NCBI GenBank assembly: GCA_905233585.1
Contig: CAJOFD010000007.1
Span: forward strand, 6,684-70,683
From: an uncultured Bacteroidales bacterium
Lineage (GTDB): Bacteria; Bacteroidota; Bacteroidia; Bacteroidales; WCHB1-69
DNA length: 64,000 nt
Direction of reading: 5' to 3'
Positions 1-24,583 of the stretch are shown here, in pieces; position 1 is the stretch's first letter, and every line of letters starts with the position of its first letter. The notes beneath the pieces were generated by a model. It worked only from the letters and a program-made list of their open reading frames with translations. It was not told the origin of the DNA and made no database searches. The position numbers and the translations under genes are program-made.

Positions 1-173
1 TTATCCTCGCCAAATGCATCATAAAACTCTTGGAATTTACTGTCATCCCAAGTTTCATGAACCGTCTCCAATGACGCTTCCGTTTTTTTGAGCTGGTCAT
101 TCAGATTATTTACAGTATCCTCAATTTTGTGTCGAAAATCTATCAACTCATCAAGATTGTTTATTACAGCCAT
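1..173 (-). CDS. Small helical WXG100/Esx-like protein (N-terminal part only; the gene runs off the window edge)
   Basis: ATG at 173, 8 nt after the stop of the FtsK-like gene. Hand translation: MAVINNLDELIDFRHKIEDTVNNLNDQLKKTEASLETVHETWDDSKFQEFYDAFGED... About 40 aa from the N-terminus it has W-x4-F-x2-F-x3-F spacing, as in S. aureus EsxA (WEGQAFSRFEEQF). The WxG glycine is Asp here. Confidence 0.45.
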   Translation of the reverse strand, partial: MAVINNLDELIDFRHKIEDTVNNLNDQLKKTEASLETVHETWDDSKFQEFYDAFGED

Positions 174-181
174 ATCCTTGG

Positions 182-3100
182 TTATTTATAAGGTTTAAAC
201 TTGGTTATTTCATTGTTGACGAAATTAAAATACAAAGCACGGAAATCAGAACTTGGGCGGCCGCTAACTTTTAATTTGTTTGCCGCTGCTGTTCCGACAA
301 CCTTGTTCGAATCATTTTCAGGCATCTGCAATGCTATTCTGTGATTGAACAGATTCAATGCACCTCTACCTATGCGAATCAAATTGCTCAGATTGTCCAC
401 CTGAAGCACTGTGAAAACGCCTAACGACGGTCCATCTTTCAAAATGGTTTCCAGCAATTTGCTACAATCTGAAGTACGATCACTAGAAGAACCACCCATG
501 TCAAACATCCTTCCTAATTGGAATGATGTAATGTGCAAATATACATGATGCATCTCTGATTCATCATCCAAATTTTTTCGATAATCAATTAATCCCTTCA
601 GATTTCCTAACACAGTTGAAACCTCATCCGCTTTCCTTGCGTCAAACCATTGAGAACTTTGCTTTATCGCTTCTATTTGTTCCGAATTGTACAAGGTCTG
701 CAATTCGTCATCATTACGCATAAAATTGCACAAAACAAAGGTTGCAGTATTATCATTATGTGCAATTGACTGCGACAAAAGTGAATAGTATGCAATTCTT
801 TTCGCCACGTCCTGTCGCCCACCAATGATGAGTATGTTATTATTAGACTCCTTGACCAATGGGACATAAACATCCGTTGCGGTTATGGCAATGCTTTCAC
901 CAACATATATACCGACTTCCTTAGGTATATTCGACATAACGAAGTGCTTCTCATCCATGATTTTTTTATTGAAATCCGGCAAATCTTTGCTTCTAAACAC
1001 ACGCATTGTCAGATTATCATCTACTTGTTCAAAGTGAGCCTTGGCATATGCGGATACACGTTCAAGCAACTCCCTTAAATCAGTAGATGCCTTGATAAAG
1101 AAGCCTCTGGTGATATTATTGGCATACTCCGAGCCGGATTCATCATTATAAATACACACACCTGTCTGAAGATGTGGTTTTGGAGTCTGCGACGGCCATT
1201 TCACCAGTTCACTGAAATCATTTGGGTCACTCTTGAACACAATTCTATTGGCAATCAAGTCACGAGGCAGAATGCTTTTCGAAGGCAGCTTTTGTGTCGC
1301 CAGAATAAGATTGATGCCAAATTTGCGGTACTCTTGAATGATTACATGTATGTAACGATTAGCTTCTTGGCTGATTTTATCGTTGTCAATTTCAAAAAGC
1401 TTTTGGAACTCGTCAATGATAACCAATAATCGTGGCACTATCATATCGGGGTTTCTCTCTTTAAGTTCAACAATGTTGGTTACATCATTATCCCGACACA
1501 AAGTCATCCTTCTGTCTCCTTCGGCTTTCAACTCCCTCAAAATACTTAGCCCAAACTCTCGTTCTGCCTCTGGTGCCACCACTCTTGCGTGAGGCAGCTT
1601 ATGTTGGGCATAAATATTGAACTCCACGCCGGAAAAGTCAAGCAAATACATCTGAAGTTCTTTTGGTGAATAGTGAATTGAGGCATTAGCAATAAGTGCA
1701 TGAAGGAAGACGCTTTTCCCAGAACCGGGAATACCAATGACGACTGCTGAATTTTGACCGCTCTCCTGTGTGATGTGAAGAGCTTGTGTCTGCATGTCCG
1801 TGGATATTCCAAACGGCACATCTATACGGTTAGCACTTTGCCCTGTCCACCATTCTTTTTCAGGGAGCATATAATCATTAAAGTGTAGCACAGTTTCCGT
1901 TTTCACCTCCATCTCTTGGTTAATCTTTCTTACCACATCCGAAAGGATATACTCCGGTAGGGTGTCATAATGGAGATTGTGTGACACAGATTCCTGATTA
2001 TTAGGATTCTCCTGAGCGAGGAGTTTAATCGTTTCACACGATATACTCTTAATGGCATTCTGCATGATATTGTATCCCTTGAGCATCTCTTCTGAACTGT
2101 TCACTACATCATTATTAACCATCACCACGACGGATACACCTGCTCGAGGTCCATTACGCATGATTTCCTCCAGTTTTCCCCACACTTCACTACCATAACC
2201 GCCCATAGGGACATCTTTCAAAACAAGGAGCTGATAAGCCTCTTTGTTCGTCTTACCCTTGTTGTAATCAGAAAGACAGGTAATTTCACCTTTTAACAGA
2301 TTTTGTATCACATTCTCAATGTGGACAGACAGCCCATTCAACAGCTTTAGGAAATCATCATAGCGTGAGATAATATGAAATACTTTTCTGTTCAGATTCT
2401 TAAAAATATTGCTCGTCCCCTCCATTTCATACAAATCAACCATAAACACGTGTGCTCCCCCATTGGGAACAGATGTCAACATTCTGCTTATCAACGTGTT
2501 CGTTATTCCGAAACACTCTTCTCGATGTTTTCTGTCATAAACCATCTGGATATTTCCTCCGCACAAAGTGTGGACATACGACCTTGTCTTAAACGAAACG
2601 GCTTCTTGAAAAAGAGGGTAACTCACTTCATCTTCACCAAGATAAAAAGTGCTTTGAACGTCATCCGAACGATTATTCAAATTATTCCAAACTAACGAAG
2701 TTGCAGGCGCAAGTTCATACCTATTTGGGTAAAGGGGCGGATTCTGTTCATAAAAATCATCGAAGACAGGATATAATGAAGCCATCACTTGCTTTTTCGC
2801 TTGTTCGTACAAACATCTATATTGAGTCTTCTTATCATCCACCTCCCTTAATGAACTTGATAGGTTTTGAGAACTGTGATGAGCAACTAACCGATATTGA
2901 TAGGTATTGTCCAATTTTCTCAAATCATCTTCATAAATTTTGTTAAATGTTGCGTATTCCCGCTCCAATCTACTCATTAAGTCTATCATTTGCACACAAC
3001 CAAACTGGTATTGTTCCAAAGAAACGTCAAACAACTCCTCTGAATAGTGCTTCGATATATGTGGCCTTTTAACAAGATAATGAGATCTTTTGAAAGTGTC

Positions 3101-3520
3101 AATAATTTGGAGGACATTCTGGGAGAATTCCGCAAAAAATCGTTCCGTGTCCTTAGCAAAGTCATACAATACAGTATCGTTTTGTGGTGTTATAACCACT
3201 TGGGGTTCGGGATCTGGTTTAGATGGTGCAGATTCCACTTCAGGAACGACATTTTCTTTCTGATTCAGGATCTGTACCCAATTAGAAGTCAATGGTGTGG
3301 TTGCAAGTACAATTCTATCTCCAGAATGAACGGGGCTATGCCCTTTCACTTTTCTTCCATTTACATACGTACCATGCTTACTCTGCAAATCTTCTATCTC
3401 ATACGTACCAGAATCCGTTTCGGTTATTTTTGCATGATGACGAGACACAGAAGATACATTAACAACAATATCATTCTCTGGTAATCGTCCTATTGTAACT
3501 GTTTTTGTATTGTTTTTCAT
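182..3520 (-). CDS. FHA-domain FtsK/SpoIIIE-family ATPase with three P-loop-like modules (EssC/EccC-like layout, no TM segment seen)
   Basis: 1112-aa ORF with an N-terminal FHA domain (TIGRLPENDIVV..SRHHAKI..SKHGTYVNGRKV). Walker A GIPGSGKS lies at nt 1712-1735 and Walker B LLVIIDEF at nt 1406-1429, followed by GINLILATQK, which is typical of FtsK/SpoIIIE. The flanking modules keep the pattern but have degenerate P-loops (LCGGN.., IIGGRQDVAKR). Confidence 0.85.
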   Translation of the reverse strand: MKNNTKTVTIGRLPENDIVVNVSSVSRHHAKITETDSGTYEIEDLQSKHGTYVNGRKVKGHSPVHSGDRIVLATTPLTSNWVQILNQKENVVPEVESAPSKPDPEPQVVITPQNDTVLYDFAKDTERFFAEFSQNVLQIIDTFKRSHYLVKRPHISKHYSEELFDVSLEQYQFGCVQMIDLMSRLEREYATFNKIYEDDLRKLDNTYQYRLVAHHSSQNLSSSLREVDDKKTQYRCLYEQAKKQVMASLYPVFDDFYEQNPPLYPNRYELAPATSLVWNNLNNRSDDVQSTFYLGEDEVSYPLFQEAVSFKTRSYVHTLCGGNIQMVYDRKHREECFGITNTLISRMLTSVPNGGAHVFMVDLYEMEGTSNIFKNLNRKVFHIISRYDDFLKLLNGLSVHIENVIQNLLKGEITCLSDYNKGKTNKEAYQLLVLKDVPMGGYGSEVWGKLEEIMRNGPRAGVSVVVMVNNDVVNSSEEMLKGYNIMQNAIKSISCETIKLLAQENPNNQESVSHNLHYDTLPEYILSDVVRKINQEMEVKTETVLHFNDYMLPEKEWWTGQSANRIDVPFGISTDMQTQALHITQESGQNSAVVIGIPGSGKSVFLHALIANASIHYSPKELQMYLLDFSGVEFNIYAQHKLPHARVVAPEAEREFGLSILRELKAEGDRRMTLCRDNDVTNIVELKERNPDMIVPRLLVIIDEFQKLFEIDNDKISQEANRYIHVIIQEYRKFGINLILATQKLPSKSILPRDLIANRIVFKSDPNDFSELVKWPSQTPKPHLQTGVCIYNDESGSEYANNITRGFFIKASTDLRELLERVSAYAKAHFEQVDDNLTMRVFRSKDLPDFNKKIMDEKHFVMSNIPKEVGIYVGESIAITATDVYVPLVKESNNNILIIGGRQDVAKRIAYYSLLSQSIAHNDNTATFVLCNFMRNDDELQTLYNSEQIEAIKQSSQWFDARKADEVSTVLGNLKGLIDYRKNLDDESEMHHVYLHITSFQLGRMFDMGGSSSDRTSDCSKLLETILKDGPSLGVFTVLQVDNLSNLIRIGRGALNLFNHRIALQMPENDSNKVVGTAAANKLKVSGRPSSDFRALYFNFVNNEITKFKPYK

Positions 3521-3553
3521 TCTTTTATTTTTTTGTTTTTCTCACAAGTTATC

Positions 3554-4096
3554 CTATGAACAACCTCTGCCAATAGCGACAATAATGGCAATAAAAATTA
3601 TAATCAAAATTATCGAACCAATACAGCCTATCGTATTGCCTAAATGATTTCCTATATTATCACCCATCTTCCTGCGAAATCCCACAGAAAAGTCATCCCC
3701 TTTTTTACGCACATCCGCAGAAATAATGTGTTCTTCTTTTTTTATGTTCATTTCTGAAGGAATGTCAACAAGTGGTCTGTTTTCATGTGGCGTTTGAGGT
3801 GTATACTGGGAGCTGGCAGGTTGTACAACCGTTTCAGGGATAGGGGTTTTCGTAGAAGAAAAATAGGTTTTCCATGGCAATGTTGTGTTGCCAATCCTAA
3901 CTACATCATTTACCGAAATCCGTACCGTTCCATTGATTCTCTTGCCATTCACATAGGTTCCGTTTGTACTATTAAGATCTGTCAATAGAAAAGCACCTGT
4001 GTTGTCTTGAGAAATCGTACAATGATTGCGCCCAACACAAGGGTCTTCGATGACAATGTCATTTGAGGTATTTCTGCCAATATTTACTTGCTTCAT
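3554..4096 (-). CDS. FHA-domain protein with a C-terminal membrane anchor
   Basis: 180 aa. FHA motifs: NIGRNTSNDIVI..GRNHCTI..STNGTYVNGKRI..RIGNTTLPWKTYF. There is a single hydrophobic segment at the extreme C-terminus (IGSIILIIIFIAIIVAIG). Confidence 0.8.
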   Translation of the reverse strand: MKQVNIGRNTSNDIVIEDPCVGRNHCTISQDNTGAFLLTDLNSTNGTYVNGKRINGTVRISVNDVVRIGNTTLPWKTYFSSTKTPIPETVVQPASSQYTPQTPHENRPLVDIPSEMNIKKEEHIISADVRKKGDDFSVGFRRKMGDNIGNHLGNTIGCIGSIILIIIFIAIIVAIGRGCS

Positions 4097-4109
4097 ATTT
4101 TTAATTTTA

Positions 4110-4964
4110 TTAATATCTCTTTTTTCTCATATATCCCTTAATATGGTTTGCAAACTCTTCGCATGACTGATAACGCTCCGACGGATCCTTCGCCAAAGCA
4201 CGTTCCACAATGAACTGTAGATTTTGTGTGATTGGCGGGTAAAAACTACTCATCTGCGGAGTGGGGGCATACTTGACTTTTTCCTTGATTTCCGCAATGT
4301 TTTGTCGTGGATTTGGATTATCAGAGGTGAATGGCAACGTGCCTGTCAGCATCTCAAAAAGCATGATGCCAAGGGAAAAAATATCGGAGAATACTCCAAC
4401 ACGTCTTTTTTCTGACTGTTCAGGAGGCATATAGGCAGGCGTACCATATCCTTCGCCTGTTGTGCTGGTACTGGCACTTGACATACGCGAGGCAATACCT
4501 AAATCAATGAGTTTCAGCTTTCCATTTGGCTGTATCATCACATTGTTGGCTTTAATATCCAAATGCAATATTCTCTTTTGGTGCAGATACGCCACGGTAT
4601 CCAGAATTTCCAAAAACATCGGCAATGCTTTCTGCTCCGGAATAAGACCTATCTCCCTGTAAATGTAATTCTCAAGACTTCTTCCTTCAATGAATTCCAT
4701 AACGATGAACATTTGCTCGGTTTCTTTCATGTCAATAAAATCCACCAGCTTAGGGATATTCGGATGTGTCAGATACAAGTACATCTGTGTTTCCTCAATG
4801 AATTTCTGCTTGATAACAATATTCTTGAAATGCCTAATCTTCAGTTCCTTAATGGCCACAGGAAAACCGCTGCGCAAGTCTATACCCCAATAGACCTTTG
4901 CGGTTCCACCCTCTGCAATCAGATGGTCAACATGATACCACGGTATTTTGGGCAAGTCGTTCAT
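4110..4964 (-). CDS. Hanks-type Ser/Thr protein kinase (kinase domain only)
   Basis: 284 aa. It carries a Gly-rich loop EGGTAKVYWG, VAIKEL lysine, catalytic loop HLDIKANNVM (non-RD), DLG in place of DFG, and GTPAYMPPEQ as the APE-like motif. Confidence 0.88.
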   Translation of the reverse strand: MNDLPKIPWYHVDHLIAEGGTAKVYWGIDLRSGFPVAIKELKIRHFKNIVIKQKFIEETQMYLYLTHPNIPKLVDFIDMKETEQMFIVMEFIEGRSLENYIYREIGLIPEQKALPMFLEILDTVAYLHQKRILHLDIKANNVMIQPNGKLKLIDLGIASRMSSASTSTTGEGYGTPAYMPPEQSEKRRVGVFSDIFSLGIMLFEMLTGTLPFTSDNPNPRQNIAEIKEKVKYAPTPQMSSFYPPITQNLQFIVERALAKDPSERYQSCEEFANHIKGYMRKKRY

Positions 4965-4969
4965 AACCG

Positions 4970-6034
4970 TTATTCTTTAGACATTTTAGTAGTATCGGTG
5001 GAAGGTGTAGGAGTGGGCGTGGGAGTACTTTCAGCATTGGACTTCTTGTCATTGGAATTTTCTATGGAGTTTGCAAATGCCTCCATAGCATCAACAATTC
5101 TCTGCTGCTCGTCATCGGATGCAGCATTATATTTGTCCTCAATTGTCTTTTTCGTGCCACCTGCACCCCATCCTTGCTTATTGCAGAAGTCTTTTTCATG
5201 CCCTTTTATACTTTTCAGCGTGTTGTTGAAAAGTCTTTTCCTTGAATCCCTTTGGGATTTTGCAAGTTGTGCTTTAGTTGTTTGCAATTCCGTTCGTGCA
5301 GCGGTCAATTCTTTATTCACTGTGTCCAACTGGTTCTTAAGTTGAGTTGCTTCTTTTTCTTTTGCTGTTTCTTTTTCTTTTGCTTTTTTGGCTGCTTCAG
5401 CTGCATCTGCTGCTGCTTTTTTGGCTGCTTTGGCTGCTTCAGCTGCATCTGCTGCTGCTTTTTTGTCTTTGGCAGACTCAGACTCTGCAGCTTTCCGTGC
5501 TGCTCTATCGGCTTCTGCTTGAGCTCTGTCGGCAGCGGCTTGTTTTTCCGCTGCTTCTTTTGCTGCTTTATCAGCTGCAGATTGGGCTTCAGCATATTCC
5601 ATTGCCGCTTTGTCATAGTCTCTCTGGGAATTCTGTATCTGTTGTTCAAGTTCTTGTTCTTGTTTTGTGTCGTTAAGACATACTCCCCATATAACACCTC
5701 CGATTAATAATAACACCACGCTGGCCACGGCCCATGTCCACCATTTGCGATAGAATGGAATGGGGACCATGGTCCTACCACCTCCAGCAGAGGCAAAGTA
5801 GCCTTGCCATGGCAAAACAATGCTGCCAATCTTCACCTCGTCGCCCGGACGGATGACTGTTTGTCCTGATATACGTTTTCCATTGACGAATGTGCCGTTG
5901 GTGCTGTTCAGATCCATTACAGTGAAATTTCCATTATCGTCCTGCACAATCTGCAGATGATTACGGCTTACTTTCTCATCATTTATAATGATGTTATTGT
6001 TCTCCTTACTTCTTCCGATGGTTATTACTTTCAT
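4970..6034 (-). CDS. FHA-TM-coiled-coil protein (Ala/Lys/Glu-rich extracytoplasmic region)
   Basis: 354 aa. The N-terminal FHA domain reads ITIGRSKENNNIIIN..SRNHLQI..STNGTFVNGKRI..KIGSIVLPWQGYF. A TM segment follows (WWTWAVASVVLLLIGGVIWGV), then a long A/K/E-rich heptad-like region and a Thr/Pro-rich tail. Confidence 0.8.
   Translation of the reverse strand: MKVITIGRSKENNNIIINDEKVSRNHLQIVQDDNGNFTVMDLNSTNGTFVNGKRISGQTVIRPGDEVKIGSIVLPWQGYFASAGGGRTMVPIPFYRKWWTWAVASVVLLLIGGVIWGVCLNDTKQEQELEQQIQNSQRDYDKAAMEYAEAQSAADKAAKEAAEKQAAADRAQAEADRAARKAAESESAKDKKAAADAAEAAKAAKKAAADAAEAAKKAKEKETAKEKEATQLKNQLDTVNKELTAARTELQTTKAQLAKSQRDSRKRLFNNTLKSIKGHEKDFCNKQGWGAGGTKKTIEDKYNAASDDEQQRIVDAMEAFANSIENSNDKKSNAESTPTPTPTPSTDTTKMSKE
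5390..5464. repeat. Perfect 33-nt direct repeat (5390-5422 and 5432-5464) inside the coiled-coil region
   Basis: ggctgcttcagctgcatctgctgctgctttttt occurs twice, separated by 9 nt. On the minus strand it encodes KKAAADAAEAAK twice. Confidence 0.9.
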
Positions 6035-6038
6035 AACT

Positions 6039-7223: not shown

Positions 7224-7247
7224 AACTGTATTTTTTATTATACTCCG

Positions 7248-8717: not shown

Positions 8718-8747
8718 ATCATAATATTATTATGTCATTAAAACTAA

Positions 8748-9320
8748 TCATTTACTGATTTTATGTTTCGTATATCTAATTGGTTGCTCTTTTCTGCCGT
8801 AAACATAAACCGTATAACCTTGAGGTGTATTATCTTCAGCCAATATTAAGGTATCTTTCGTGAGTTTTTTTATCTCATAAATCTCTTTTTGGGGGCAATA
8901 TAATACTAACACAGAATCGCATAATATCTCATACTTCACACCTGAAAGTAAATAAAGTTCACGGATTAGGTTGTTGAACTCAACTGTGTCAGCAACATTG
9001 TTGTTTGTCTTTTCATTAACGACCTCCTCGTTGTTTTCTTCCCAATAGACGACTTCCTCTTCATAAGATTCCTCAAAGGTGTTGTTAAAAGCTTCAGCAT
9101 CCACAAGTGCTTCTTCCACGACTTCTTCATCGTCCATAGAGTTAAAGACAATACATTTATTTTTGTCATACAGAACACCTTCAAGATATTCCTCATTCGA
9201 AGGTATTTGAACCTCTTGCAAATACCACGTTCCTCCTATTAGCTTTTGTTTGGATGATTGTGCGAATATGAATTCACCAACAATCACTAACAGAATAACT
9301 ATTATGGATGCTTTTTTCAT
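8748..9320 (-). CDS. Secreted acidic protein of unknown function
   Basis: The ORF is open to 9344 (GTG). ATG at 9320 gives a signal-peptide-like MKKASIIVILLVIVGEFIFAQ. The middle region is Glu-rich (EEVVEEALVDAE..EESYEEEVVYWEENNEEVV). The start is uncertain (9320/9329/9344). Confidence 0.55.
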   Translation of the reverse strand: MKKASIIVILLVIVGEFIFAQSSKQKLIGGTWYLQEVQIPSNEEYLEGVLYDKNKCIVFNSMDDEEVVEEALVDAEAFNNTFEESYEEEVVYWEENNEEVVNEKTNNNVADTVEFNNLIRELYLLSGVKYEILCDSVLVLYCPQKEIYEIKKLTKDTLILAEDNTPQGYTVYVYGRKEQPIRYTKHKISK

Positions 9321-9346
9321 ATTATACATCTTTACATTTTTCACTT

Positions 9347-9799
9347 CTATTGTTCCAACACTCTATAAAAACTCCCAGGCAAATACACATTCTTGATATC
9401 ATTCTCGATGGCTTTGAAGAACAACGGGGCAATTTCCTGCGGGGTGAAGCCTGCAATACCGCAGCCAATCTCTGTGACCAAGAAATCCAGTTCGCCATGC
9501 ACTGTGGCGAATTGCAGGAAATCATCCACGTAGGGTTTGATAGTTTCCACACCGCCCTGCATAGTCGGGATGGCGTATGTCTTTCCATACATGCCCACTC
9601 CCTTTCCCCATACAGCTCCGAAGTGCTCGTATGCCATACGGGCAGCCCCACCCACATGGCCCCCCATGCCGTCACACACCACAAAAACGTCACCATTCGG
9701 TGTGTCCAATGCCATGTCGTGACTATCTTCCTGTGCCTTTCGGACATTGCCGACAACGCCTTTCTTAAAAATGTTGTTTCTATTGGTTACTAAACTCAT
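9347..9799 (-). CDS. Chimeric ORF: duplicated PP2C N-terminus (52 aa) fused to a small phage-associated-type domain (YAIPT..GCGIAGF)
   Basis: The first 52 aa match the PP2C N-terminus with one I->V change. The remainder (ARMAYEHFGAVWGKGVGMYGKTYAIPT..FLVTEIGCGIAGFTPQEIAPLF) resembles, from memory, the family NCBI labels A1S_2505 phage non-structural protein. It lacks that family's own N-terminal strand. Confidence 0.6.
   Translation of the reverse strand: MSLVTNRNNIFKKGVVGNVRKAQEDSHDMALDTPNGDVFVVCDGMGGHVGGAARMAYEHFGAVWGKGVGMYGKTYAIPTMQGGVETIKPYVDDFLQFATVHGELDFLVTEIGCGIAGFTPQEIAPLFFKAIENDIKNVYLPGSFYRVLEQ
9645..9799. repeat. Copy B of the ~155-nt dispersed repeat (5' end of the chimeric ORF)
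   Basis: See copy A (7069-7223). Confidence 0.85.
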
Positions 9800-9845
9800 A
9801 ATAATGTTTTTAATTAATGTTCATATTGCTACCTCAAATGCCTTT

Positions 9846-10451
9846 TTAAAGGGTTGTTCTTTCGTCAAATAGTTTACTTTCATCATAATCGGAATAATAG
9901 TCCAACTGTTTTAAGATTGGAGAGTTTTGTAACACCTTTATCAAGTGTTTCAATTCATTTGCACTGAGGAAAACACGACCATTTTTATTTGTTATCTCAA
10001 CACCAGAAAGCACCGTATTGACACCTCCTTCTCCAGGAGACATCGTGCGTTCATGATGATTAAAGCCAGCAGCACATACTCTCACACGAGTTTGCCTTTC
10101 ACGATTATCCGGACCTGTTGACCCCATATCAATGTGCATTTCAATATTAAAGTCGTGTCCGCAGCTTTCGCATTTGCCATCCCAATGATAGTTCCACGGA
10201 ACAATGCGATCCCTTATGTCATATAGTGACGACACAACGATTCCAAATTCTGGCCGAGGAATTCCCTTTCTCAGTGGCTGTCCGCAATGAGGACAGGAGG
10301 GTATCGTCATCAATTCTGCAACATGTTGGTGTAAATATTCACGTCCATCAAAAGGATTAACGTTCCTGATTGAATAATACTGCGTCGGACAGTACGGACA
10401 CGTGTCGCCTTCATATAAGTGGCCTCGGGGGCATTGTTTTAGTGTGCTCAT
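9846..10451 (-). CDS. Multi-Zn-ribbon protein of unknown function
   Basis: 201 aa. The N-terminal CPRGHLYEGDTCPYCP is paralogous to the heads of the 489-aa and 205-aa proteins. Further Cys pairs are CPHCG and CESCGH. Confidence 0.6.
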   Translation of the reverse strand: MSTLKQCPRGHLYEGDTCPYCPTQYYSIRNVNPFDGREYLHQHVAELMTIPSCPHCGQPLRKGIPRPEFGIVVSSLYDIRDRIVPWNYHWDGKCESCGHDFNIEMHIDMGSTGPDNRERQTRVRVCAAGFNHHERTMSPGEGGVNTVLSGVEITNKNGRVFLSANELKHLIKVLQNSPILKQLDYYSDYDESKLFDERTTL

Positions 10452-10459
10452 ATTAATTT

Positions 10460-11071
10460 TTATTTAAACCCAGTTACTTTCCATTTGCCATTGATTTTTT
10501 CGAGCAAGACTTTCACGTTAGTATCACCATAGCGTGTTATATCTTGGAATCCGACATGATTAACTTCAGAAGTTGGACTACACGTTACATATACCTTTTT
10601 AATATTTATGCCAGCACGAGGTTCGCTTTCCCCTGGCAAATAAACCATACCGTTTTTAACATATTGCTCAATACCACCATACCTGCTTCCACCTTCCTCA
10701 TAATACCATTCGTCCTGAACATAGGCGATGGTGACCTCATATTCCCTGAATAATGCAGGAAGCCAAGATAAAATAGCAAGCTTCCCTGTAGAAAAGTAAT
10801 CCACAAGGGAATTTATACCATATTCACCATAATCTTTTCGAATGTAAGGATCTGTATAATATATCTTACCCCTAATATCCATATACGACCTCATCTTGTC
10901 AAAATCTTTTTGCAAGATCGCACATATAAAATTATAGGTAATGGCAGCAGGGGTTTTACATTCAGCGATTTCCTGATTGCTTAATCTTAGCACAATCGGA
11001 TTGGGGTATTGAGCATATAGGGTTCCCAAAAACATCACTGACAAAACGATAATTGCGAATAACTTTTTCAT
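10460..11071 (-). CDS. Secreted protein of unknown function
   Basis: 203 aa with a signal-peptide-like MKKLFAIIVLSVMFLGTLYAQ. It sits 8 nt from the next gene, and I recognised no motif. Confidence 0.55.
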   Translation of the reverse strand: MKKLFAIIVLSVMFLGTLYAQYPNPIVLRLSNQEIAECKTPAAITYNFICAILQKDFDKMRSYMDIRGKIYYTDPYIRKDYGEYGINSLVDYFSTGKLAILSWLPALFREYEVTIAYVQDEWYYEEGGSRYGGIEQYVKNGMVYLPGESEPRAGINIKKVYVTCSPTSEVNHVGFQDITRYGDTNVKVLLEKINGKWKVTGFK

Positions 11072-11099
11072 AAATCAAAATAAATTATAACAATGAATA

Positions 11100-12914
11100 T
11101 TAATTTTTCGTTGAAACTCTGGTCAGATTATCTGATCTGAAATCAGACTTTCCGTCATATTTCCATACAGACCATTGACCATCTTTTGCACACCCCCCAA
11201 TATAAAAAGAGTATCCATCTGTCACAACCGACATAGCCTGATACCTTAATTTATCATTTACTTGGAAACCTTCCCCATTGACCCAAACCATTGCATTTGA
11301 GTTAGGATTCTGTACAATTCCAGTCACAACAATCACCCCAGCATTGTTCACTGCAACAGATTGTGCACTACCATATTCCACATTTCCCAGAGATATAAAA
11401 TCACCATCCTTCCATAAAGCGGGTTTGTTATTCACTTCTCCTGCCACAAATATATCTCCTTTATCGGTGAGAAAAATAGAATTGGCACGACTCATCTCCA
11501 AATTATAAGCCACTTCCTCGCCATTTCCTCGTAACACATACAGAAAGGCTTCTCCAGAGAAATATTCACCTGTATATCCTGCCACATATATGTTATCTCC
11601 CTTTACAACCACCGAATTTGCAGATCCGCTTTCGCCTAAACTGTTCGGAACACCATTTTTCCACAGAGTGGGTTGTCCGTCTTTCTGTCCTGCAACATAC
11701 ACATCATTCCTATCTACATATACACAATTTGCCTCCGCTTGTCCCAAGCCCTCCGCCAACATTTGCCTCTCTCCATTCTTCCATAGCAGAGCCTCTCCTT
11801 TATCATTCTCATCTATCGTAACATATACATCATTACCTGAAACGAACACTGATGTTGCTTTATTAAAATTACCCATTTCTCCGATTTCTTGGGCAACACC
11901 ATTCTTCCATAATGTTGGAACATCAGTTTCTGACGTTTGTTCACAAGTGCTACCGACAGCATAAACGTCATTTCCCGAAACGAACACAGAATTAATATCG
12001 GTATAAGGTCTGCTTGTCTTACTGTCGGATTTGTGAAATAGCAATATTGCCACAACAATCACAACAGCAATAATGCTACCCAAAACAAGCCACAACCATG
12101 TTTTTTTCAACCCTTGCGTTTTTGCAGGGGTACTATGATCATACTCCAACAAATTCCAGCAGCTGACACCGTTCTTTTTGATTTGCAAGATAGCCCAAAG
12201 AATAATCAGTGATATTGGGGTTACTATTACCTGAATGATAGGATTTAGGTCAAGACTCAAACCTATTAACATGTAATCCTGCTTAACAAGGTTTATCATG
12301 ATTACATTGACAATGGCAAGTATTATTGCTGTAACAACAGCTCCCCAAAAGCCTATTTTCTTCCATTTCAAAAGCAAAGAGTAACTAATAATCATACAAA
12401 TCCCTCCTATTACGGAAACAATTTGCCAAATTAGAATATGAGGATGTATCGCCTCGGAAAACGGAGTAATATCTATGCCATTGGCAACAAGATCCATGCC
12501 TAAATACCCTAAATTTGTCAAGTTTTGATATGTAAACAGATTCAATATGATTCCTAAAACACTACTCACAATCCCAAGCCACAACCAAAATATCACAAAA
12601 CCATGACGTTCTTTAATGCGAGGAGCGTACGGGATTCCTGCTTCCGGTGCCACTGACGCAACTGTTTCAGAGTCTTCAAAGTATTGCTTCCATGGGATAG
12701 TACTATTGCCAATACGTACCACATCATTTATGTTCAGATTGATTTCCCCACTTATTTTCTGTCCATTAACGTATGTGCCGTTAGTACTTCCAAAATCCGA
12801 CAAGGTGAAATGCCCGTCATCATGTTGGATGATTTGCATGTGATGACGTGACGCATGCGGATCTTTAACCATCACATCGTTTTCTTCGCTTCTTCCTATT
12901 GTAATTACCTTCAT
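11100..12914 (-). CDS. FHA - polytopic membrane - repeat (beta-propeller-like) sensor protein
   Basis: ATG at 12914 (MKVITIGRSEEND..) fits the upstream stop at 12934. The FHA domain reads SRHHMQI..STNGTYVNGQKI..RIGNSTIPWKQYF. Several hydrophobic segments follow. After them come about seven ~40-aa repeats of the type SVFVSGNDVYAVG....PTLWKNG (nt ~11127-11969). Confidence 0.78.
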   Translation of the reverse strand: MKVITIGRSEENDVMVKDPHASRHHMQIIQHDDGHFTLSDFGSTNGTYVNGQKISGEINLNINDVVRIGNSTIPWKQYFEDSETVASVAPEAGIPYAPRIKERHGFVIFWLWLGIVSSVLGIILNLFTYQNLTNLGYLGMDLVANGIDITPFSEAIHPHILIWQIVSVIGGICMIISYSLLLKWKKIGFWGAVVTAIILAIVNVIMINLVKQDYMLIGLSLDLNPIIQVIVTPISLIILWAILQIKKNGVSCWNLLEYDHSTPAKTQGLKKTWLWLVLGSIIAVVIVVAILLFHKSDSKTSRPYTDINSVFVSGNDVYAVGSTCEQTSETDVPTLWKNGVAQEIGEMGNFNKATSVFVSGNDVYVTIDENDKGEALLWKNGERQMLAEGLGQAEANCVYVDRNDVYVAGQKDGQPTLWKNGVPNSLGESGSANSVVVKGDNIYVAGYTGEYFSGEAFLYVLRGNGEEVAYNLEMSRANSIFLTDKGDIFVAGEVNNKPALWKDGDFISLGNVEYGSAQSVAVNNAGVIVVTGIVQNPNSNAMVWVNGEGFQVNDKLRYQAMSVVTDGYSFYIGGCAKDGQWSVWKYDGKSDFRSDNLTRVSTKN

Positions 12915-12933
12915 AAATCCATGTGTGTTTGTA

Positions 12934-14457
12934 TTATACATAAAAAATAATGAGTGCTTCTCCCAAACCAATTATATCTCCGCTTTTTAGTGTGCATTGC
13001 TGGAAAAACTGTCCGTTTACAATAACACCTTGCGTGTATGATTTACTTTTGTTCGTTATATCAAACGCTGTCCCATTAAAAGTTATTTCAGCGTGAAATC
13101 CCGACACTGTCTTATTGTTAAGCACAACATCATTGTTTTCGTTGCGTCCGAGTGTCGTATGGATATTGTTTATAGTGTATGTGAATGATGTGTCAGGTAT
13201 TTTGCATTGTAGATGCGGAAACAGATTTTTCGTCTGCATAAGGTTTGTCAAACGTTTTTCCTTTTCAGCACGCTCTTTTTCAGCGGCTTCAGCGGCTATC
13301 CGTCTCTTTTCTTCCTCTTGCTGACGTTTCAACTCTTCCAATTGCTCGTTTGATTGGTCTATGCCCTTTTGAAGTATTTCATTTTTCTTGTTGCGTTCAG
13401 CAATGCTGCGGCGGATGAACCAAACAGAAAAAATAACAATAGCAATAAAAATCACCACAAAGACAATAAACAATGCCGTATTTTCCTCTATCCAATCACA
13501 AAATGTCATATCGGGAGCATTGAAAGCCGCCAACAACTGCGGTACTTTATTGACAGTAAGCCCTATACGATGGGGTTTACCATCTCTTTTGGCTTTTGTT
13601 GTGAAAGTTATTTCATAATCATTGCCATAGCAACGAGAGTCAAAATTATAATAATAGTTTCGCAAAACAGCAAGAGCTTCATTTACATCGCATGAAGATG
13701 CATGAAGACCATAAGTACTTTCCGATAGAGAATTTACCTCTGGAGCATCTCCAGCAAGAGGATATTTCACTACATAAATAGGAATATCTGCATCCAAAGC
13801 ATTTTTTCTAACACTTTCCATCTCTGTACTTGCCCCAGCCGCTTTCACATTGAGTCCAGCAGTTACTACAATAAGGATACAAGTACGATTAGATGGTTCT
13901 TTCTTTAATAATTCAATACCTTCATTAATAGCAAGATACAAATCAGATTGTTGGGAAAACTCTTTGAAAAATTCACTACTTCTAGTATAACTATATACTG
14001 TATCTTTCAATTGTCGAGAATCTGAAGAAAAAGATTTTAATAGAGGTTCGGTTACAGTCCGTTTGCTACTTTTTTTCCGATTGAACACTGCAACATTAAA
14101 CATATCGGAATCGTTCAATAAAGTTTCGTTAAAGAACCGAGATAGCAATTGGCGTGTAAATTCCGTCTGTTTACTATGACTAACCATGTCTTCCCATAAA
14201 AACAATATACTTTTGTTTTGATTGACATTGCCTTTGGAAAGCACTTTAAAATTAAAATCAATAGGCTGATTATCTTCATCTGTCAAAACGAATTGAGACT
14301 TATCAAGCACATCAGGATTGGCTGAATTCCATACAAATGAAATTTCCGGATATTTTTCAGTATTGTATTTACTTTTAAGACCTCTTGTATTTTGAGCCCA
14401 CAGTTGAGCCGTAAGCAAAAATGCACCGAATACAATATATAGATATACACGTTTCAT
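12934..14457 (-). CDS. Signal peptide - vWA-like domain - TM - coiled coil - C-terminal FHA protein
   Basis: ATG at 14457 (MKRVYLYIVFGAFLLTAQLWAQ). The vWA-like strand pattern has a degenerate MIDAS (LFLWEDMVSHS, ILIVVTAGLN, IPIYVVKYP). A TM segment follows (ALFIVFVVIFIAIVIFSVWFI), then an EEEKRR-rich helix. The C-terminal FHA domain reads TTLGRNENNDVVL..SGFHAEI..GVIVNGQ. Confidence 0.72.
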   Translation of the reverse strand: MKRVYLYIVFGAFLLTAQLWAQNTRGLKSKYNTEKYPEISFVWNSANPDVLDKSQFVLTDEDNQPIDFNFKVLSKGNVNQNKSILFLWEDMVSHSKQTEFTRQLLSRFFNETLLNDSDMFNVAVFNRKKSSKRTVTEPLLKSFSSDSRQLKDTVYSYTRSSEFFKEFSQQSDLYLAINEGIELLKKEPSNRTCILIVVTAGLNVKAAGASTEMESVRKNALDADIPIYVVKYPLAGDAPEVNSLSESTYGLHASSCDVNEALAVLRNYYYNFDSRCYGNDYEITFTTKAKRDGKPHRIGLTVNKVPQLLAAFNAPDMTFCDWIEENTALFIVFVVIFIAIVIFSVWFIRRSIAERNKKNEILQKGIDQSNEQLEELKRQQEEEKRRIAAEAAEKERAEKEKRLTNLMQTKNLFPHLQCKIPDTSFTYTINNIHTTLGRNENNDVVLNNKTVSGFHAEITFNGTAFDITNKSKSYTQGVIVNGQFFQQCTLKSGDIIGLGEALIIFYV

Positions 14458-14459
14458 TT

Positions 14460-15077
14460 TTAACAAGATGTTCTGAATTTAAAAACTGTTTTTCCCATAC
14501 GAATCTCATCACCATCTTGCAAATAACAAGGCTCCAAATCAATATCATTGTTATTCACAAAAGTTCCATGCGAAGATTGCTGGTCAGTAATGGAATATTT
14601 GCCTGCTCGGAAAAGAATAACGGCGTGTTTTGCTGATACCATGTTGTCATTAACAGTGATGTTGCATTCCATATCGCGTCCAATTATGTTGCGTCCCTCA
14701 TATAGTTTAAAGTCAACACCCATATTATCAAGAGTATATGAAACCAACCAACCTACCAATTTACGTGTGGTACGCCCCCCTTGCTTTCTTCCTTCTGGAG
14801 AAGGAACTCCTACATCATATTCATCACCAAAAACAGTGTGACTGCTTGGGCTCGGGTTAGAAACCACAGTTTCAGATTCTACCACAGCGGTTTTTGTCGT
14901 ACCACCAAAATTTCCCGGCATTGTTTCTGTTGGTGCTTGGCTATCTCCACCTCCAAAAATTTCAGTTTTTGCCGAAGTGGGACTTCCCCCCACATTTACA
15001 TTTCCCGTTTTGCAATAAGGACAAGTAGCTCCATGATAGTAATGACCATTAGGACATTGTTTAAATTCGTTTGCCAT
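14460..15077 (-). CDS. Zn-ribbon + FHA protein (first gene of the cluster)
   Basis: ATG at 15077 (MANEFKQCPNGHYYHGATCPYCK). A Gly/Pro/Thr-rich linker follows. The C-terminal FHA domain reads NIIGRDMECNITV..SAKHAVI..SSHGTFVNNNDI. Confidence 0.8.
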   Translation of the reverse strand: MANEFKQCPNGHYYHGATCPYCKTGNVNVGGSPTSAKTEIFGGGDSQAPTETMPGNFGGTTKTAVVESETVVSNPSPSSHTVFGDEYDVGVPSPEGRKQGGRTTRKLVGWLVSYTLDNMGVDFKLYEGRNIIGRDMECNITVNDNMVSAKHAVILFRAGKYSITDQQSSHGTFVNNNDIDLEPCYLQDGDEIRMGKTVFKFRTSC

Positions 15078-15104
15078 AATTATTTCCTTTTTAATAATAA
15101 AGTG

Positions 15105-15112
15105 CAAAGATA
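15105..15112 (-). promoter_or_regulatory. Bacteroidetes -7 promoter box (TATCTTTG) heading the FHA cluster
   Basis: The plus strand reads caaagata, so the minus strand reads TATCTTTG, matching the TAnnTTTG consensus. It lies 28 nt upstream of the ATG at 15077. Confidence 0.55.
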
Positions 15113-15419: not shown

Positions 15420-15490
15420 ATTTTTCTACATATACCTCCAGTTCCCAAAGGCTAAAAACAAATAGAAACGTGGAACTGTATCTATATATC

Positions 15491-24577: not shown

Positions 24578-24583
24578 AATAAT

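Follow-up and report, generated by a model that had tools for sequence, protein, structure and literature searches.

Gene content and extent of the island

The locus lies at one edge of a 64,000-nt stretch of DNA (the window) from a rumen Bacteroidales bacterium. As listed in Table 1, 13 complete genes on the minus strand are followed by a 14th that starts at position 173 and runs past the window edge, an arrangement given both by the ORF listing and by gene calls on an identical contig. Successive genes are separated by 2, 19, 28, 8, 46, 26, 30, 24, 4, 5, 13, 33 and 8 nt, which bears out the tight junctions (every gap ≤46 nt) reported in a preliminary description of this DNA. The "fourteen-gene" unit of that description reflects where the window happens to end: on the identical metagenome contig the operon carries on for at least 7 further genes, and the acquired island comprises at least 20. 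It is missing from a sister genome, which reveals the island boundary, and its G+C content is 0.40, compared with ~0.34 in the remaining window. The flank seen in the window is housekeeping DNA, and not the integrative element or prophage that had been named as a setting that would count against a dedicated system.

Table 1. Features of the locus within the window
Feature	Position	Strand	Description
TATCTTTG	15105..15112	-	matches Bacteroidota -7 consensus TAnnTTTG; 28 nt upstream of first ATG
g01	14460..15077	-	205 aa, soluble: Zn-ribbon head, Thr/Ser-rich linker, C-terminal FHA (Pfam 7.4e-18); no TM
g02	12934..14457	-	probable signal peptide, ~300-aa extracytoplasmic domain, one TM (residues 330-348), coiled coil, cytoplasmic FHA (Pfam 1.2e-12)
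g03	11100..12914	-	cytoplasmic FHA (Pfam 2.9e-19), polytopic membrane module, extracytoplasmic ~40-aa tandem repeats
g04	10460..11071	-	203 aa, probable signal peptide (hydropathy); no Pfam family
g05	9846..10451	-	201 aa: Zn-ribbon head and more CxxC pairs; Pfam Zn-ribbon matches all sub-threshold
g06	9347..9799	-	chimeric ORF: first 52 codons copied from PP2C gene, fused to unrelated ~100-aa domain
g07	8748..9320	-	190 aa, acidic, probable signal peptide (hydropathy); no Pfam family
g08	7248..8717	-	Zn-ribbon head, ~270-aa stretch, then kinase C-lobe (HCDLKPQN, APE)
g09	6039..7223	-	PP2C phosphatase: one TM (residues 283-301), extracytoplasmic coiled coil
g10	4970..6034	-	FHA (Pfam 1.3e-21), one TM (residues 102-120), extracytoplasmic Ala/Lys/Glu-rich coiled coil
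g11	4110..4964	-	soluble Hanks-type Ser/Thr kinase (Pfam Pkinase 1.7e-52); catalytic motifs VAIK, HLDIKxxN, DLG kept
g12	3554..4096	-	180 aa, tail-anchored FHA protein (Pfam FHA 5.6e-22); TM residues 156-174
g13	182..3520	-	TM-less ATPase: N-terminal FHA, helical region (~residues 120-260), three P-loop-fold modules
g14	1..173	-	first 57 codons of 91-aa WXG100-superfamily protein; W42-D43-D44 at predicted turn; cut by window edge

The -7 box noted at the operon head is indeed present, in flank common to the sister genome. TAnnTTTG occurs 147 times in the window, more often than the 101 ± 9.5 expected, but one match alone is not significant. Terminator-like sites within the operon (13, with 9.9 ± 3.4 expected) show no excess over chance.

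The domain set described previously was recovered by Pfam: six FHA domains (E 1e-12 to 6e-22), a Pkinase domain in g11, a partial one in g08 and PP2C in g09 (PP2C_2 6e-14, PP2C 2.6e-9; metal-binding motifs DGMGGH, GDSR, DG and DN kept). Most FHA domains keep GR, SxxH and N(G), read in the translations, which we take to be the phosphothreonine-binding residues. Three paralogous Zn-ribbon heads are likewise legible as an N-terminal CPxGHxYxGxxCPxC. Hydropathy fits the two signal-peptide proteins, g04 and g07, in which N-terminal hydrophobic segments are found, and assigns one or several membrane segments to each of the other membrane proteins. The start of g02, MKRVYLYIVFGAFLLTAQLWAQ, reads as a signal peptide by eye, although the hydropathy scan did not flag it.

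Other assignments required revision. The "vWA-like" label given to g02 finds no support in Pfam or PDB profiles, and the "propeller-like" label has as its only basis the ~40-residue tandem repeats read in the sequence. The Pkinase match of g08 (1.6e-13) is confined to profile positions 87–253, the C-lobe, and its PDB matches to residues 254–386; since neither search gives a recognisable N-lobe, g08 may be a pseudokinase. The PP2C-derived part of g06 lies within a direct repeat of 172 nt (7069–7240 and 9645–9816, 88% identity), and its ~100-aa domain is a free-standing gene in three sister loci (L007, L012, L017). Homologues of g01 occur in L004, L005, L018 and L023, and one of g05 in L007; g02 is kept in four genomes at 45–52% identity.

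The ATPase and the small WxD proteins

The product of g13 had been described as a three-module FHA-FtsK/SpoIIIE ATPase of the type found in type VII secretion systems (T7SS), and every comparison agrees. Pfam identifies FHA and FtsK_SpoIIIE (1.4e-22) domains. Among PDB sequences the best matches are EccC (7.8e-17), EccC5 and YukB, with FtsK at only 3e-6; the family profile retrieves EccC5 and YukB at 6e-17, and the best NCBIfam matches are EssC, EccCb and EccCa. In a Foldseek search with an AF2 model of low confidence (pLDDT 64.8, active module unresolved), T. curvata EccC (9e-13) and EssC outrank TcpA, B204 and FtsK through multi-domain alignments. Sequence and fold thus support placing the ATPase nearest to EccC/EssC/YukB, and not with FtsK or coupling proteins, the clustering that had been cited as grounds for rejection. 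Walker A (GIPGSGKS, 596–603) and Walker B (LLVIIDEF, 698–705) are found in the middle module only, and it is only there that both are invariant across the family. Unlike FtsK and TraB, the island ATPase has three modules, two of them degenerate. It differs from its T7SS counterparts in that hydropathy detects no transmembrane segment in the ATPase of any family member; we propose that an N-terminal adaptor replaces the anchor.

The edge ORF, g14, had been called Esx-like. Family profile and Pfam both place it in the WXG100 superfamily, with W-x-D where the WXG100 proteins of T7SS have W-x-G. The top 12 structure matches of the WxD family profile (48 members) are all WXG100 proteins, including EsxA-like SAG1039 (6.4e-6), S. 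aureus EsxA (1.9e-5), EsxB and HP0062, with the two motifs aligned. W-x-D is invariant in the family, and 29 of the 48 members match Pfam WXG100 at E ≤0.01; the AF2 model of the WxD protein is of low confidence (pLDDT 58.2). Beyond the window edge, the g15 family is a Cys-rich helical protein and the g16 family a third WxD paralogue (hhalign 88%, 3e-6).

A conserved core with exchangeable regulatory layers

Gene-neighbourhood comparison shows that the gene set is kept as a unit in related genomes, as would be expected of a dedicated system. About 50 uncultured Bacteroidota species carry the ATPase together with two or three WxD proteins and the Cys-rich helical protein, and of ~52 loci, 30 to 46 combine the ATPase with WxD proteins, g15 and g16. 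In L006 the five-gene core stands alone between housekeeping genes, with no envelope proteins.

The phospho-signalling genes of the preliminary description are present here, but they are an accessory of one subclade and not part of the core. The FHA/kinase/PP2C layer is confined to loci whose ATPase has an N-terminal FHA; all of these lack GYF proteins nearby, and most have further FHA proteins. Conversely, all loci with GYF-headed ATPases lack FHA proteins nearby. In such sister loci GYF domains with ThiF (E1) and JAB take the place of FHA/kinase/PP2C, and some loci have neither layer. Individual genes cross this divide: the membrane module of g03 recurs with or without FHA in loci of both types, and g04 has a 52% homologue in a GYF-type locus (L013). 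The link to phospho-signalling recurs in a more distant relative on a betaproteobacterial (Caballeronia) plasmid, where the core adjoins vWA, PP2C and Zn-ribbon kinase genes. The operon there also encodes a CARF protein along with an AAA protein of 1151 aa.

The system had been called undescribed, which holds only in part: Bacteroidetes solo-WXG proteins accompanied by a three-module ATPase, active in its middle module alone, are mentioned by Zhang et al. 2012 (PMC3482391, Table 1 footnote 6), who termed such loci "mobile versions of T7SS". In the literature the ATPase and small-protein core is noted this once, with no experimental study; all carriers are uncultured MAGs.

Candidate functions of the locus

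We read the locus, with moderate confidence, as an accessory genomic island that codes for a machine related to type VII secretion. The preliminary description had left export and defence as alternatives, and export is now favoured on the strength of sister loci in which a papain-fold toxin is joined to locus-specific N-terminal domains. L023:15507-16865 joins a WxD domain (98.3%, 2.6e-14) to toxin Pfam PF15644 (8e-18), and L025:13572-14990 joins a g15-family domain (99.9%, 2e-34) to the same toxin (46% identity); homologous ORFs of 79–81 aa follow both. N-terminal targeting, C-terminal toxin and small downstream ORF together are a polymorphic-toxin architecture, and among the Bacteroidetes toxins that Zhang et al. 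2012 (PMC3482391) assign to export by T7SS (WXG) is Tox-PL1. The fusions occur in only 2 of 13 FHA-type genomes. A WxD-domain profile search returned only short stand-alone proteins, and no toxin domain is recognisable in the readable part of this strain's locus.

An intracellular, NTPase-centred conflict system directed against phages or mobile elements is a less probable alternative. The ATPase and WxD proteins would sense or act on the invader, the kinase/PP2C/FHA layer would serve as trigger or safety catch, and the toxin-bearing variants would be abortive-infection effectors restrained by the small downstream proteins. The TM-less ATPase suits such a system, and its patchy distribution (absent from the sister genome, with deviant G+C), the wholesale exchange of regulatory layers and the CARF and large AAA proteins of the Caballeronia relative also fit. 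E1/JAB and kinase/PP2C/vWA modules recur in described conflict systems (Kaur et al. 2020). In PADLOC the FtsK module of g13 has matches at 1e-14 to SspH and mad8, both ATPases of defence systems, and defence-system kinase models match g08. However, no complete PADLOC system model was matched, and the ATPase scores 77 and 69 bits with EssC/EccC against ~50 bits with SspH or mad8. The strictly conserved WXG100-type pair is without known defence role, many locus proteins have large periplasmic domains, and the toxin fusions are laid out like exported polymorphic toxins.

It is rather unlikely that the locus serves phospho-signalling and the assembly of a structure in the envelope or on the cell surface, with WxD proteins as intracellular regulators or chaperone-like ATPase partners that are not exported. 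An intracellular role for EsxAB has been proposed in Streptomyces development. Many membrane proteins of the loci carry periplasmic coiled coils, repeats, BACON or peptidoglycan-binding OmpA_C domains, Hsp70 substrate-binding-like and DnaJ zinc-finger-like proteins are encoded alongside them, and no channel was identified; yet the L006 core dispenses with envelope proteins, and toxin fusions to WxD and g15 domains are hard to square with purely regulatory proteins. That the locus encodes a DNA translocase or a coupling protein for conjugation (FtsK, TraB or TcpA type) as part of an integrative or conjugative element is highly improbable: the FtsK_SpoIIIE domain, the weaker TcpA and FtsK matches and the acquired nature of the island are outweighed by the first rank of EccC and EssC in every measure, the three-module layout in which two modules are degenerate, the absence of relaxase, integrase and T4SS genes from both the window flank and the sister loci examined, and the fact that no plasmid or phage record spans ≥80% of the protein.

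For the secretion-related machine that we favour, the WxD proteins and g15-type domain would be substrates or targeting modules, extended in some genomes by C-terminal toxin domains. The ATPase would recognise these modules and drive translocation at the inner membrane and, because it has no membrane anchor, would be recruited through its N-terminal adaptor, FHA in this subclade. Two Hanks kinases, one soluble and one membrane-anchored, would write phosphothreonine marks and the membrane PP2C would erase them; seven FHA domains would read them, five on membrane proteins whose far ends (repeat module, coiled coils, subtilisin-like protease) would face the periplasm. Whether the ATPase assembles on a membrane scaffold would thus be gated by phosphorylation, much as type VI secretion is by its PpkA/PppA/Fha1 checkpoint. 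We infer this gating from domain content and adaptor co-variation, and we likewise infer the pairing of kinases with targets, FHA recruitment, translocation and a route across the outer membrane.

Pfam and NCBIfam profile searches turned up no counterpart of EccB, EccD, EccE, EsaA, EssA or EssB, the membrane components of T7SS. As first described, no outer-membrane conduit is visible, and neither one nor a channel-forming protein was identified in the locus or the relatives examined; no barrel can be recognised in the BACON/OmpA_C proteins of a 93%-identical relative. The downstream FHA-TM-subtilase (Peptidase_S8 21.5 bits, below the cut-off of 21.8, plus a fervidolysin prodomain) recalls the mycosin of T7SS.

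Gene content and chromosomal setting of the operon

The island operon lies on the minus strand at 1-15112 and comprises 13 complete genes and a fourteenth that starts at 173 and is cut by the window edge. With start codons taken from gene calls on an identical contig, all junctions measure 2-46 nt, in keeping with the tight operon proposed in the preliminary description. Pfam searches detected a complete Hanks kinase (1.7e-52), a second protein in which just the C-lobe of a kinase is recognised, six FHA domains, one PP2C, and a 1112-aa protein combining FHA with FtsK_SpoIIIE. Three Zn-ribbon heads of the form CPxGHxYxGxxCPxC were read in the translations, and membrane topologies were derived by a hydropathy scan. 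The catalogue of domains first reported is confirmed by these data with the exception of two labels. The vWA-like label for g02 found no support from Pfam, from phmmer searches of the PDB or from a five-sequence profile; Pfam and PDB sequence/profile searches detected no vWA domain within the window. The sole basis of the "propeller-like" label is a set of ~40-residue repeats read in the sequence.

The ATPase sequence was found unchanged on a 75.5-kb metagenome scaffold, L001, which continues the operon beyond the window edge, and in a strain with a 93%-identical ATPase two more genes follow. The unit thus has at least 20 genes, with seven FHA domains and two intact kinases; the "fourteen-gene" operon is therefore accurate for the window, its last gene being cut, and not for the full unit.

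Features of the operon, its continuation, its flank and related loci
Feature	Location (strand)	Remarks
PorV-like and PorU-like genes	23474-29587 (+)	PorU-like: Peptidase_C25 plus FlgD_ig; 8 kb from island
Hairpin, ~135 nt	15490-15622	Between small HTH-like gene and divergent PepSY-like gene
HTH-like ORF, 72 aa	15201-15419 (-)	Directly upstream of operon
Promoter-like box TATCTTTG	15105-15112 (-)	28 nt 5′ of first ATG
g02	12934-14457 (-)	
g03	11100-12914 (-)	Polytopic membrane module, residues ~100-260
Chimeric ORF, 150 aa	9347-9799 (-)	First 52 residues equal PP2C N-terminus
Direct repeats of PP2C 5′ end	7069-7240 and 9645-9816	172 nt, 88% identity
g09, PP2C	6039-7223 (-)	
g10	4970-6034 (-)	Extracytoplasmic coiled coil
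Short degenerate direct repeats	5347-5577	Within g10
g12	3554-4096 (-)	
Second TAnnTTTG match	3605-3612 (-)	In g12 3′ end, 85 nt upstream of ATPase start
g13, ATPase	182-3520 (-)	1112 aa
g14, edge ORF	1-173 (-)	Cut by window edge
Complete edge ORF	L001 continuation, same strand	91 aa
g15	L001 continuation, same strand	258-aa helical, Cys-rich protein
g16	L001 continuation, same strand	164-aa protein
g17	L001 continuation, same strand	196-aa protein
FHA-TM protein	L001 continuation, same strand	759 aa; fervidolysin-type prodomain, borderline Peptidase_S8 match
Hsp70-like protein	L001 continuation, same strand	346 aa; matches Hsp70 substrate-binding region
Membrane-anchored Hanks kinase	L001 continuation, same strand	413 aa; last gene before L001 contig end
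TPR-like/BACON protein	Strain with 93%-identical ATPase	Probable signal peptide
BACON/OmpA_C protein	Strain with 93%-identical ATPase	
Hsp70 substrate-binding-region-only and DnaJ-type proteins	L001:18090-19130, L019:15984-16919, L004:16003-17031	FHA-type loci
Lys-rich N-terminal motif	L012:15813-16604, L013:16010-17005	GYF-type loci; examples
Caballeronia operon	L061, NZ_CP049321.1 19333-39423	Plasmid pSBC2-5

The -7 box described at the operon head is present. TAnnTTTG is enriched throughout the window, with 147 matches against 101 ± 9.5 expected, and a single match proves nothing. The second match, inside g12, could be an internal promoter. Terminator-like sites were no more numerous than expected by chance.

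Upstream of the operon the flank is ordinary chromosome, encoding a U32 peptidase, an LptA-like protein, UDG, UbiA, PorV/PorU-like type IX secretion proteins and Ham1. The nearest species representative is the MAG of a Bacteroidales bacterium from water-buffalo rumen. Between 18434 and 15102 it matches the window at 92% identity; beyond 15102 it carries an unrelated lipoprotein gene in place of the operon. Synteny thus ends at the operon head, which marks an island boundary, and G+C is ~0.40 in the island versus ~0.34 in the rest of the window. Residence in a known ICE or prophage, named at the outset as contrary evidence, was checked, and for the visible flank, which represents one island end, its gene content rules out such an origin. 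Scans for tRNA genes and Rfam families found neither near the island, and no plasmid or phage record contained at least 80% of the ATPase.

Several features of the flank and of the operon itself deserve mention. The small HTH-like gene is kept in an operon-less sister MAG, RGIG8104; since the 92% synteny stops at 15102, this gene and the promoter box are part of the flank and not of the island. The near-perfect hairpin (RNA fold -56.6 kcal/mol, z = -7.7) is likewise in the flank common to the sister genome and has no Rfam match. No type IX C-terminal sorting domain was found in the locus proteins. Within the operon, a copy of the PP2C gene 5′ end and its upstream spacer sits before an unrelated gene, creating the chimeric ORF; its C-terminal domain, which belongs to no Pfam family, is encoded by a gene of its own (132-220 aa) in three related loci (L007, L012, L017). 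The degenerate repeats in g10 encode its Ala/Lys/Glu-rich coiled coil, and the long plus-strand ORFs over them look like shadows of low-complexity coding sequence, not genes.

An EccC-like ATPase and its small helical partners

By sequence, the closest solved relatives of the ATPase are T. curvata EccC (7.8e-17), EccC5 and YukB, with FtsK (3e-6) and TcpA (5e-4) lower, and a family profile searched against the PDB left this ranking unchanged, with EccC, EccC5 and YukB on top. The leading NCBIfam models were EssC, EccCb and EccCa at 68-77 bits, against equivalog cut-offs of 346-778 (for EssC, 77 bits against 778). An AlphaFold2 (AF2) model of modest quality (pLDDT 64.8) shows three alpha/beta modules in addition to the FHA domain and a helical region. 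It does not resolve the conserved middle module (pLDDT <50 for residues 539-884), and its use is limited to counting modules and to local fold comparison. In a Foldseek search with this model, multi-domain structures of EccC and EssC scored best (9e-13 to 7e-9), before TcpA, B204 and FtsK. The likeness to EccC, EssC and YukB that was first noticed in the sequence is therefore upheld by all four rankings.

When 14 homologues are aligned, invariant Walker motifs (A, GIPGSGKS; B, LLVIIDEF) are confined to the middle module. GK[ST] is absent from modules 1 and 3, and the protein ends right after module 3. Hydropathy analysis found no TM segment reaching threshold in the window ATPase or in 11 of the 13 aligned homologues, the remaining two being marginal. 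An exhaustive profile search recovered 2,294 cluster representatives at E ≤1e-30; among the best 150 of these, most align over all three modules and the few named organisms are Phycisphaerales, Anaerolineae and Pyrinomonadaceae. We rejected an FtsK translocase or coupling protein on the grounds that two of the three modules are degenerate, that no domain, such as a DNA-binding gamma or wHTH domain, follows module 3, and that FtsK and TcpA rank below EccC and EssC; no conjugation genes were found in the window flank or the examined sister loci.

Directly 3′ of the ATPase, sister loci encode two paralogous types of small protein (A-type and B-type, 90-98 aa), to which the edge ORF belongs. Only W42 and D44 are invariant among 48 sequences, giving W-x-D where WXG100 proteins have W-x-G, and we refer to the family as WxD. 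The edge ORF itself scores 20.1 bits (7.8e-4) against Pfam WXG100, under the cut-off of 27.3, and 29 of the 48 members match that model. All 12 of the best PDB matches to the WxD profile are WXG100 structures, including SAG1039 (6.4e-6), S. aureus EsxA (1.9e-5), B. anthracis EsxB and H. pylori HP0062, the EsxA/EsxB/HP0062 structures being matched at 6.4e-6 to 4e-3. The Esx-like assignment of the edge ORF consequently stands, although the window copy is sub-threshold in Pfam. The AF2 model, built on a shallow alignment of 14 close homologues, agrees with the anticipated helical hairpin at low confidence (pLDDT 58), with helices at 7-42 and 45-87 separated by a break at W42-D43-D44.

Two further partners are encoded downstream. 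In g16, the N-terminal domain represents a third W-x-D paralogue (hhalign 88%, 3e-6). The g15 proteins are helical and make up a family of their own, with conserved Cys motifs and CxxCGRPxxxCxC at the C-terminus, and show no convincing relation to PDB entries or to the WxD profile.

In two FHA-type sister loci (FHA-type and GYF-type being named by the N-terminal adaptor domain of the ATPase), a papain-fold toxin domain was found (Pfam PF15644, 8e-18 and 3e-11). In L023 it lies C-terminal to a B-type WxD domain (98.3%, 2.6e-14), and in L025 a toxin 46% identical to that of L023 lies C-terminal to a g15-family domain (99.9%, 2e-34). Both genes are followed by homologous ORFs of 79-81 aa, putative immunity genes. 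Both toxins display an NC...H...ExQ pattern resembling the NC-H-DxQ signature of Tox-PL1, with Glu for Asp; Zhang et al. (2012, PMC3482391) name Tox-PL1 among the toxins that Bacteroidetes export via T7SS (WXG) and give Imm35 as the matching immunity protein. The occurrence of one toxin on two locus-specific N-terminal domains, with a small 3′ gene, corresponds to the layout of exported polymorphic toxin systems (shared trafficking N-terminus, variable toxin, immunity gene), and this argues that WxD and g15 domains are targeting modules. Such fusions were seen in two genomes only. A profile search with the B-type domain for additional examples returned only proteins of ~95-170 aa, and no toxin domain was recognised in the readable part of this strain's locus.

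The C-terminal tails of WxD proteins are conserved and type-specific across loci L001-L051. A-type tails read E-Y-x-[DEN]-L in GYF-type and headless loci and Y-x4-[MT]-H-L or YLGQSF in FHA-type loci, and B-type tails read G-[IL]-[GKR] or F-N-[ML]-G. Longer B-type proteins and toxin fusions continue exactly past the tail motif, which suggests a recognition or processing site.

A conserved core with alternating adaptor layers

A single-protein scan of genome contigs with the ATPase gave no match, making an alignment-based scan necessary; with one genome per species, the latter recovered 50 loci. These relatives are all uncultured MAGs from rumen, gut, termite and lake, carried by ~50 Bacteroidota species, and the records are labelled Bacteroidota or unclassified save for one weak actinobacterial match and three MAGs labelled Bacillota. 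The conserved unit consists of the ATPase with WxD proteins (46 loci), g15 (40 loci) and g16 (30 loci). In L006, this core stands alone amid housekeeping genes. FHA, kinase and PP2C genes occur only in the 13 genomes with an N-terminal FHA domain on the ATPase, so that the expectation of a unit conserved across related genomes is borne out for the core, but for the phosphorylation layer only alongside an FHA-headed ATPase.

The ATPase of 24 other genomes has GYF_2 domains at its N-terminus in place of FHA; encoded in these operons are GYF-TM proteins, a membrane protein with Prok-JAB, a ThiF (E1) protein and DUF4234. Adaptor co-variation is strict: loci with FHA-headed ATPases encode 1-9 FHA proteins and zero GYF proteins, and those with GYF-headed ATPases encode zero FHA proteins. 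In a neighbour-joining tree of the three modules, calculated without support values, most FHA-type ATPases form one clade nested among GYF types and two lie elsewhere, suggesting repeated head-domain swaps. From these sequence patterns, the adaptor domain looks like a locus-wide means of assembly, and its strict co-variation is the main indirect argument for recruitment of the soluble ATPase by FHA-phosphothreonine binding.

The GYF-type loci with the same core include L012, L013, L015, L021, L024 and L026, among others, and carry GYF_2 on the ATPase and on membrane proteins; L024 also encodes a PrsW protease. ThiF and JAB were verified in these loci. An "E2-like" assignment for a protein between the core and the JAB/ThiF genes found no Pfam or PDB support; the protein shows only an invariant NHP...YLC pattern. 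One to three copies of a Lys-rich N-terminal motif of ~45 aa (…LKAKREELKKKLL.G.KV.IAP.GNV) occur on this candidate E2 and, in the same loci, on several proteins that are otherwise unrelated; the motif was not found in FHA-type loci.

The reading of WxD and g15 domains as targeting modules is also supported by a distant relative of the core, which resides on a mobilizable plasmid, pSBC2-5, of the cultured and annotated Caballeronia sp. SBC2. Its operon encodes, in order, an annotated vWA protein; a W-x-D WXG100 protein (96% to the family profile); a 436-aa protein whose g15-type region (94%) is joined to a different C-terminal domain, for which no PDB match was found; two small ORFs; a TM-less three-module ATPase; a CARF protein (DUF1887); a second annotated vWA protein; a PP2C; a kinase with a Zn ribbon; and a large AAA protein of 1151 aa. 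The link between the core and PP2C/kinase signalling therefore recurs across phyla.

Relation to known systems and proposed function

In a table footnote, Zhang, de Souza, Anantharaman, Iyer and Aravind (2012, Biol Direct 7:18, Table 1 footnote 6; PMC3482391) mention "mobile versions of T7SS" in which solo WXG proteins accompany a distinct YueA-like ATPase; of the three HerA/FtsK domains of this ATPase, the middle one alone is active. Judged from sequence, the core belongs to this class: it shares the three-module ATPase with Walker A/B in the middle only, the solo WXG-type neighbours, the occurrence in Bacteroidetes and a patchy or mobile spread (the island is missing in a sister genome, and there is a plasmid relative). 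That note is one sentence, and is silent on anchor loss, the W-x-D turn, g15/g16, and the FHA/kinase/PP2C and GYF plus ThiF/JAB layers. Literature searches for a Bacteroidota FHA/FtsK/WXG system returned this footnote only and no experimental work, and in the literature searched we found no description of the FHA-rich variant, the anchorless ATPase, W-x-D, the g15/g16 partners or the alternation of FHA with GYF/ThiF/JAB. The claim in the preliminary description that the system is undescribed thus applies to the FHA-rich variant, and not to the ATPase and solo-WXG core.

Type VII secretion is usually regarded as Gram-positive and mycobacterial. The T7SSb (Ess/Yuk) systems of Bacillota comprise EssC/YukB, EsxA/YukE, the pseudokinase EssB/YukC, the ubiquitin-like protein EsaB/YukD and LXG toxins. 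Similarities to the loci studied here are a multi-module FtsK/SpoIIIE ATPase with N-terminal FHA, WXG100-type neighbours, a kinase-like protein, and toxins consisting of an N-terminal helical targeting domain and a C-terminal toxin with an immunity gene; T7SSb has a ubiquitin-like subunit, and sister loci here carry ubiquitin-system enzymes. In contrast to T7SSb, the island ATPase has no TM helices, a single FHA and an active module between two degenerate ones, the kinases and PP2C look catalytically intact, most of the FHA domains keep the residues that bind phosphothreonine, and the host is diderm. T7SSa (ESX) of Actinomycetota comprises EccC, EsxA/EsxB, MycP and EccB/D/E. EccC is the best match by sequence and structure, small helical proteins are paired, and the island encodes a membrane-anchored, outward-facing subtilisin-like protease, as is MycP; however, this protease has a cytoplasmic FHA, the turn is W-x-D and not W-x-G, and there is no EccB/EccD/EccE. 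Neither these nor EsaA/EssA/EssB or EsaB/YukD were found among 20 locus proteins searched with Pfam, or among the 10 also scanned with NCBIfam. Two features of canonical T7SS are present (ATPase type, WXG100 neighbours) and two are absent (membrane anchor, membrane components), and we therefore use the name "T7SS-related", not T7SS.

The H1 T6SS of P. aeruginosa is controlled by a threonine-phosphorylation checkpoint formed by PpkA, PppA and Fha1. Here too, the locus encodes FHA scaffold proteins along with a PP2C and a membrane-bound Hanks kinase; at seven, its FHA domains are far more abundant than in that checkpoint, and one is on the motor ATPase itself. Pfam searches found no T6SS structural families (TssB/C, Hcp, VgrG, TssM, others) in the locus proteins, and by analogy the island appears to share the checkpoint logic without membership in T6SS. 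Kinase, Zn-ribbon, PP2C and vWA themes have been described by Kaur et al. 2020 (PMC7159879). As in TerY-P-type vWA/PP2C/kinase triads, the PP2C gene lies next to a kinase gene and signalling proteins bear Zn-ribbon heads, and the Caballeronia relative has a textbook vWA/PP2C/Zn-ribbon-kinase set with its two vWA genes. In the window no vWA domain was detected, and the described triads are unlinked to an EccC-like ATPase or WXG100 proteins.

The best-supported reading is that the operon encodes a T7SS-related export module whose soluble motor would be recruited to a membrane scaffold via phosphothreonine and FHA. Two kinases would write phosphothreonine marks and the membrane PP2C would erase them, FHA-phosphothreonine binding would bring the ATPase to the scaffold, and the periplasmic modules (repeat domain, coiled coils, mycosin-like protease, BACON/OmpA_C proteins) may serve envelope functions. 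Its weak points are the anchorless ATPase, the lack of a recognisable channel or outer-membrane conduit among the locus proteins, the lack of a recognised toxin in the readable part here, and the detection of fusions in just two genomes. As the principal alternative, the locus would be an intracellular conflict system. In favour of this are its nature as an island, the swapping of modules, the presence of CARF and AAA proteins in the Caballeronia operon and the PADLOC output, which consisted of generic FtsK-module and kinase matches only; the polymorphic-toxin layout points to targeting modules. A purely regulatory or envelope-assembly role is less likely, as is a DNA-translocase role, given the rejection of FtsK and coupling-protein assignments for the ATPase.

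A broader and more tentative extension of the export reading, to which we give rather less than even credence, is that the ATPase, WxD proteins and g15-type domain form a portable engine for phylum-spanning, diderm T7-like export, delivering polymorphic toxins and docking on lineage-specific scaffolds through interchangeable post-translational "plug" layers. In this island the layer would be phosphothreonine/FHA; sister Bacteroidota would use GYF together with ThiF (E1) and JAB, and Burkholderiales vWA/PP2C/kinase/CARF. T7SS-type secretion would then be neither limited to monoderm and mycolate-bearing bacteria nor bound to a membrane-embedded ATPase. If functional, such a relative in Bacteroidota of gut and rumen would constitute an unstudied route of interbacterial antagonism in a much-studied microbiome phylum, and would show how a T7SS motor runs without its own membrane anchor. 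The use of one motor with phosphothreonine/FHA or with GYF and ubiquitin-type enzymes offers a natural comparison for the gating of secretion and conflict machines, and the Caballeronia plasmid provides a cultured organism for testing the core. The chief interest is that T7-like export in Gram-negative gut bacteria, and its gating, become directly testable.

Two other elements recur among the loci. The polytopic membrane module of g03 is found in L019, L004, L031, L039, L028 and L013, with or without an FHA head, in FHA-type and GYF-type loci alike; no other polytopic membrane element of the window's locus was found common to both types, which makes the module a candidate for the ATPase's partner in the membrane. 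FHA-type loci also carry proteins whose match to Hsp70 is limited to its substrate-binding region, and a DnaJ-type CXXCXGXG zinc-finger protein, which hints at a dedicated chaperone pair.
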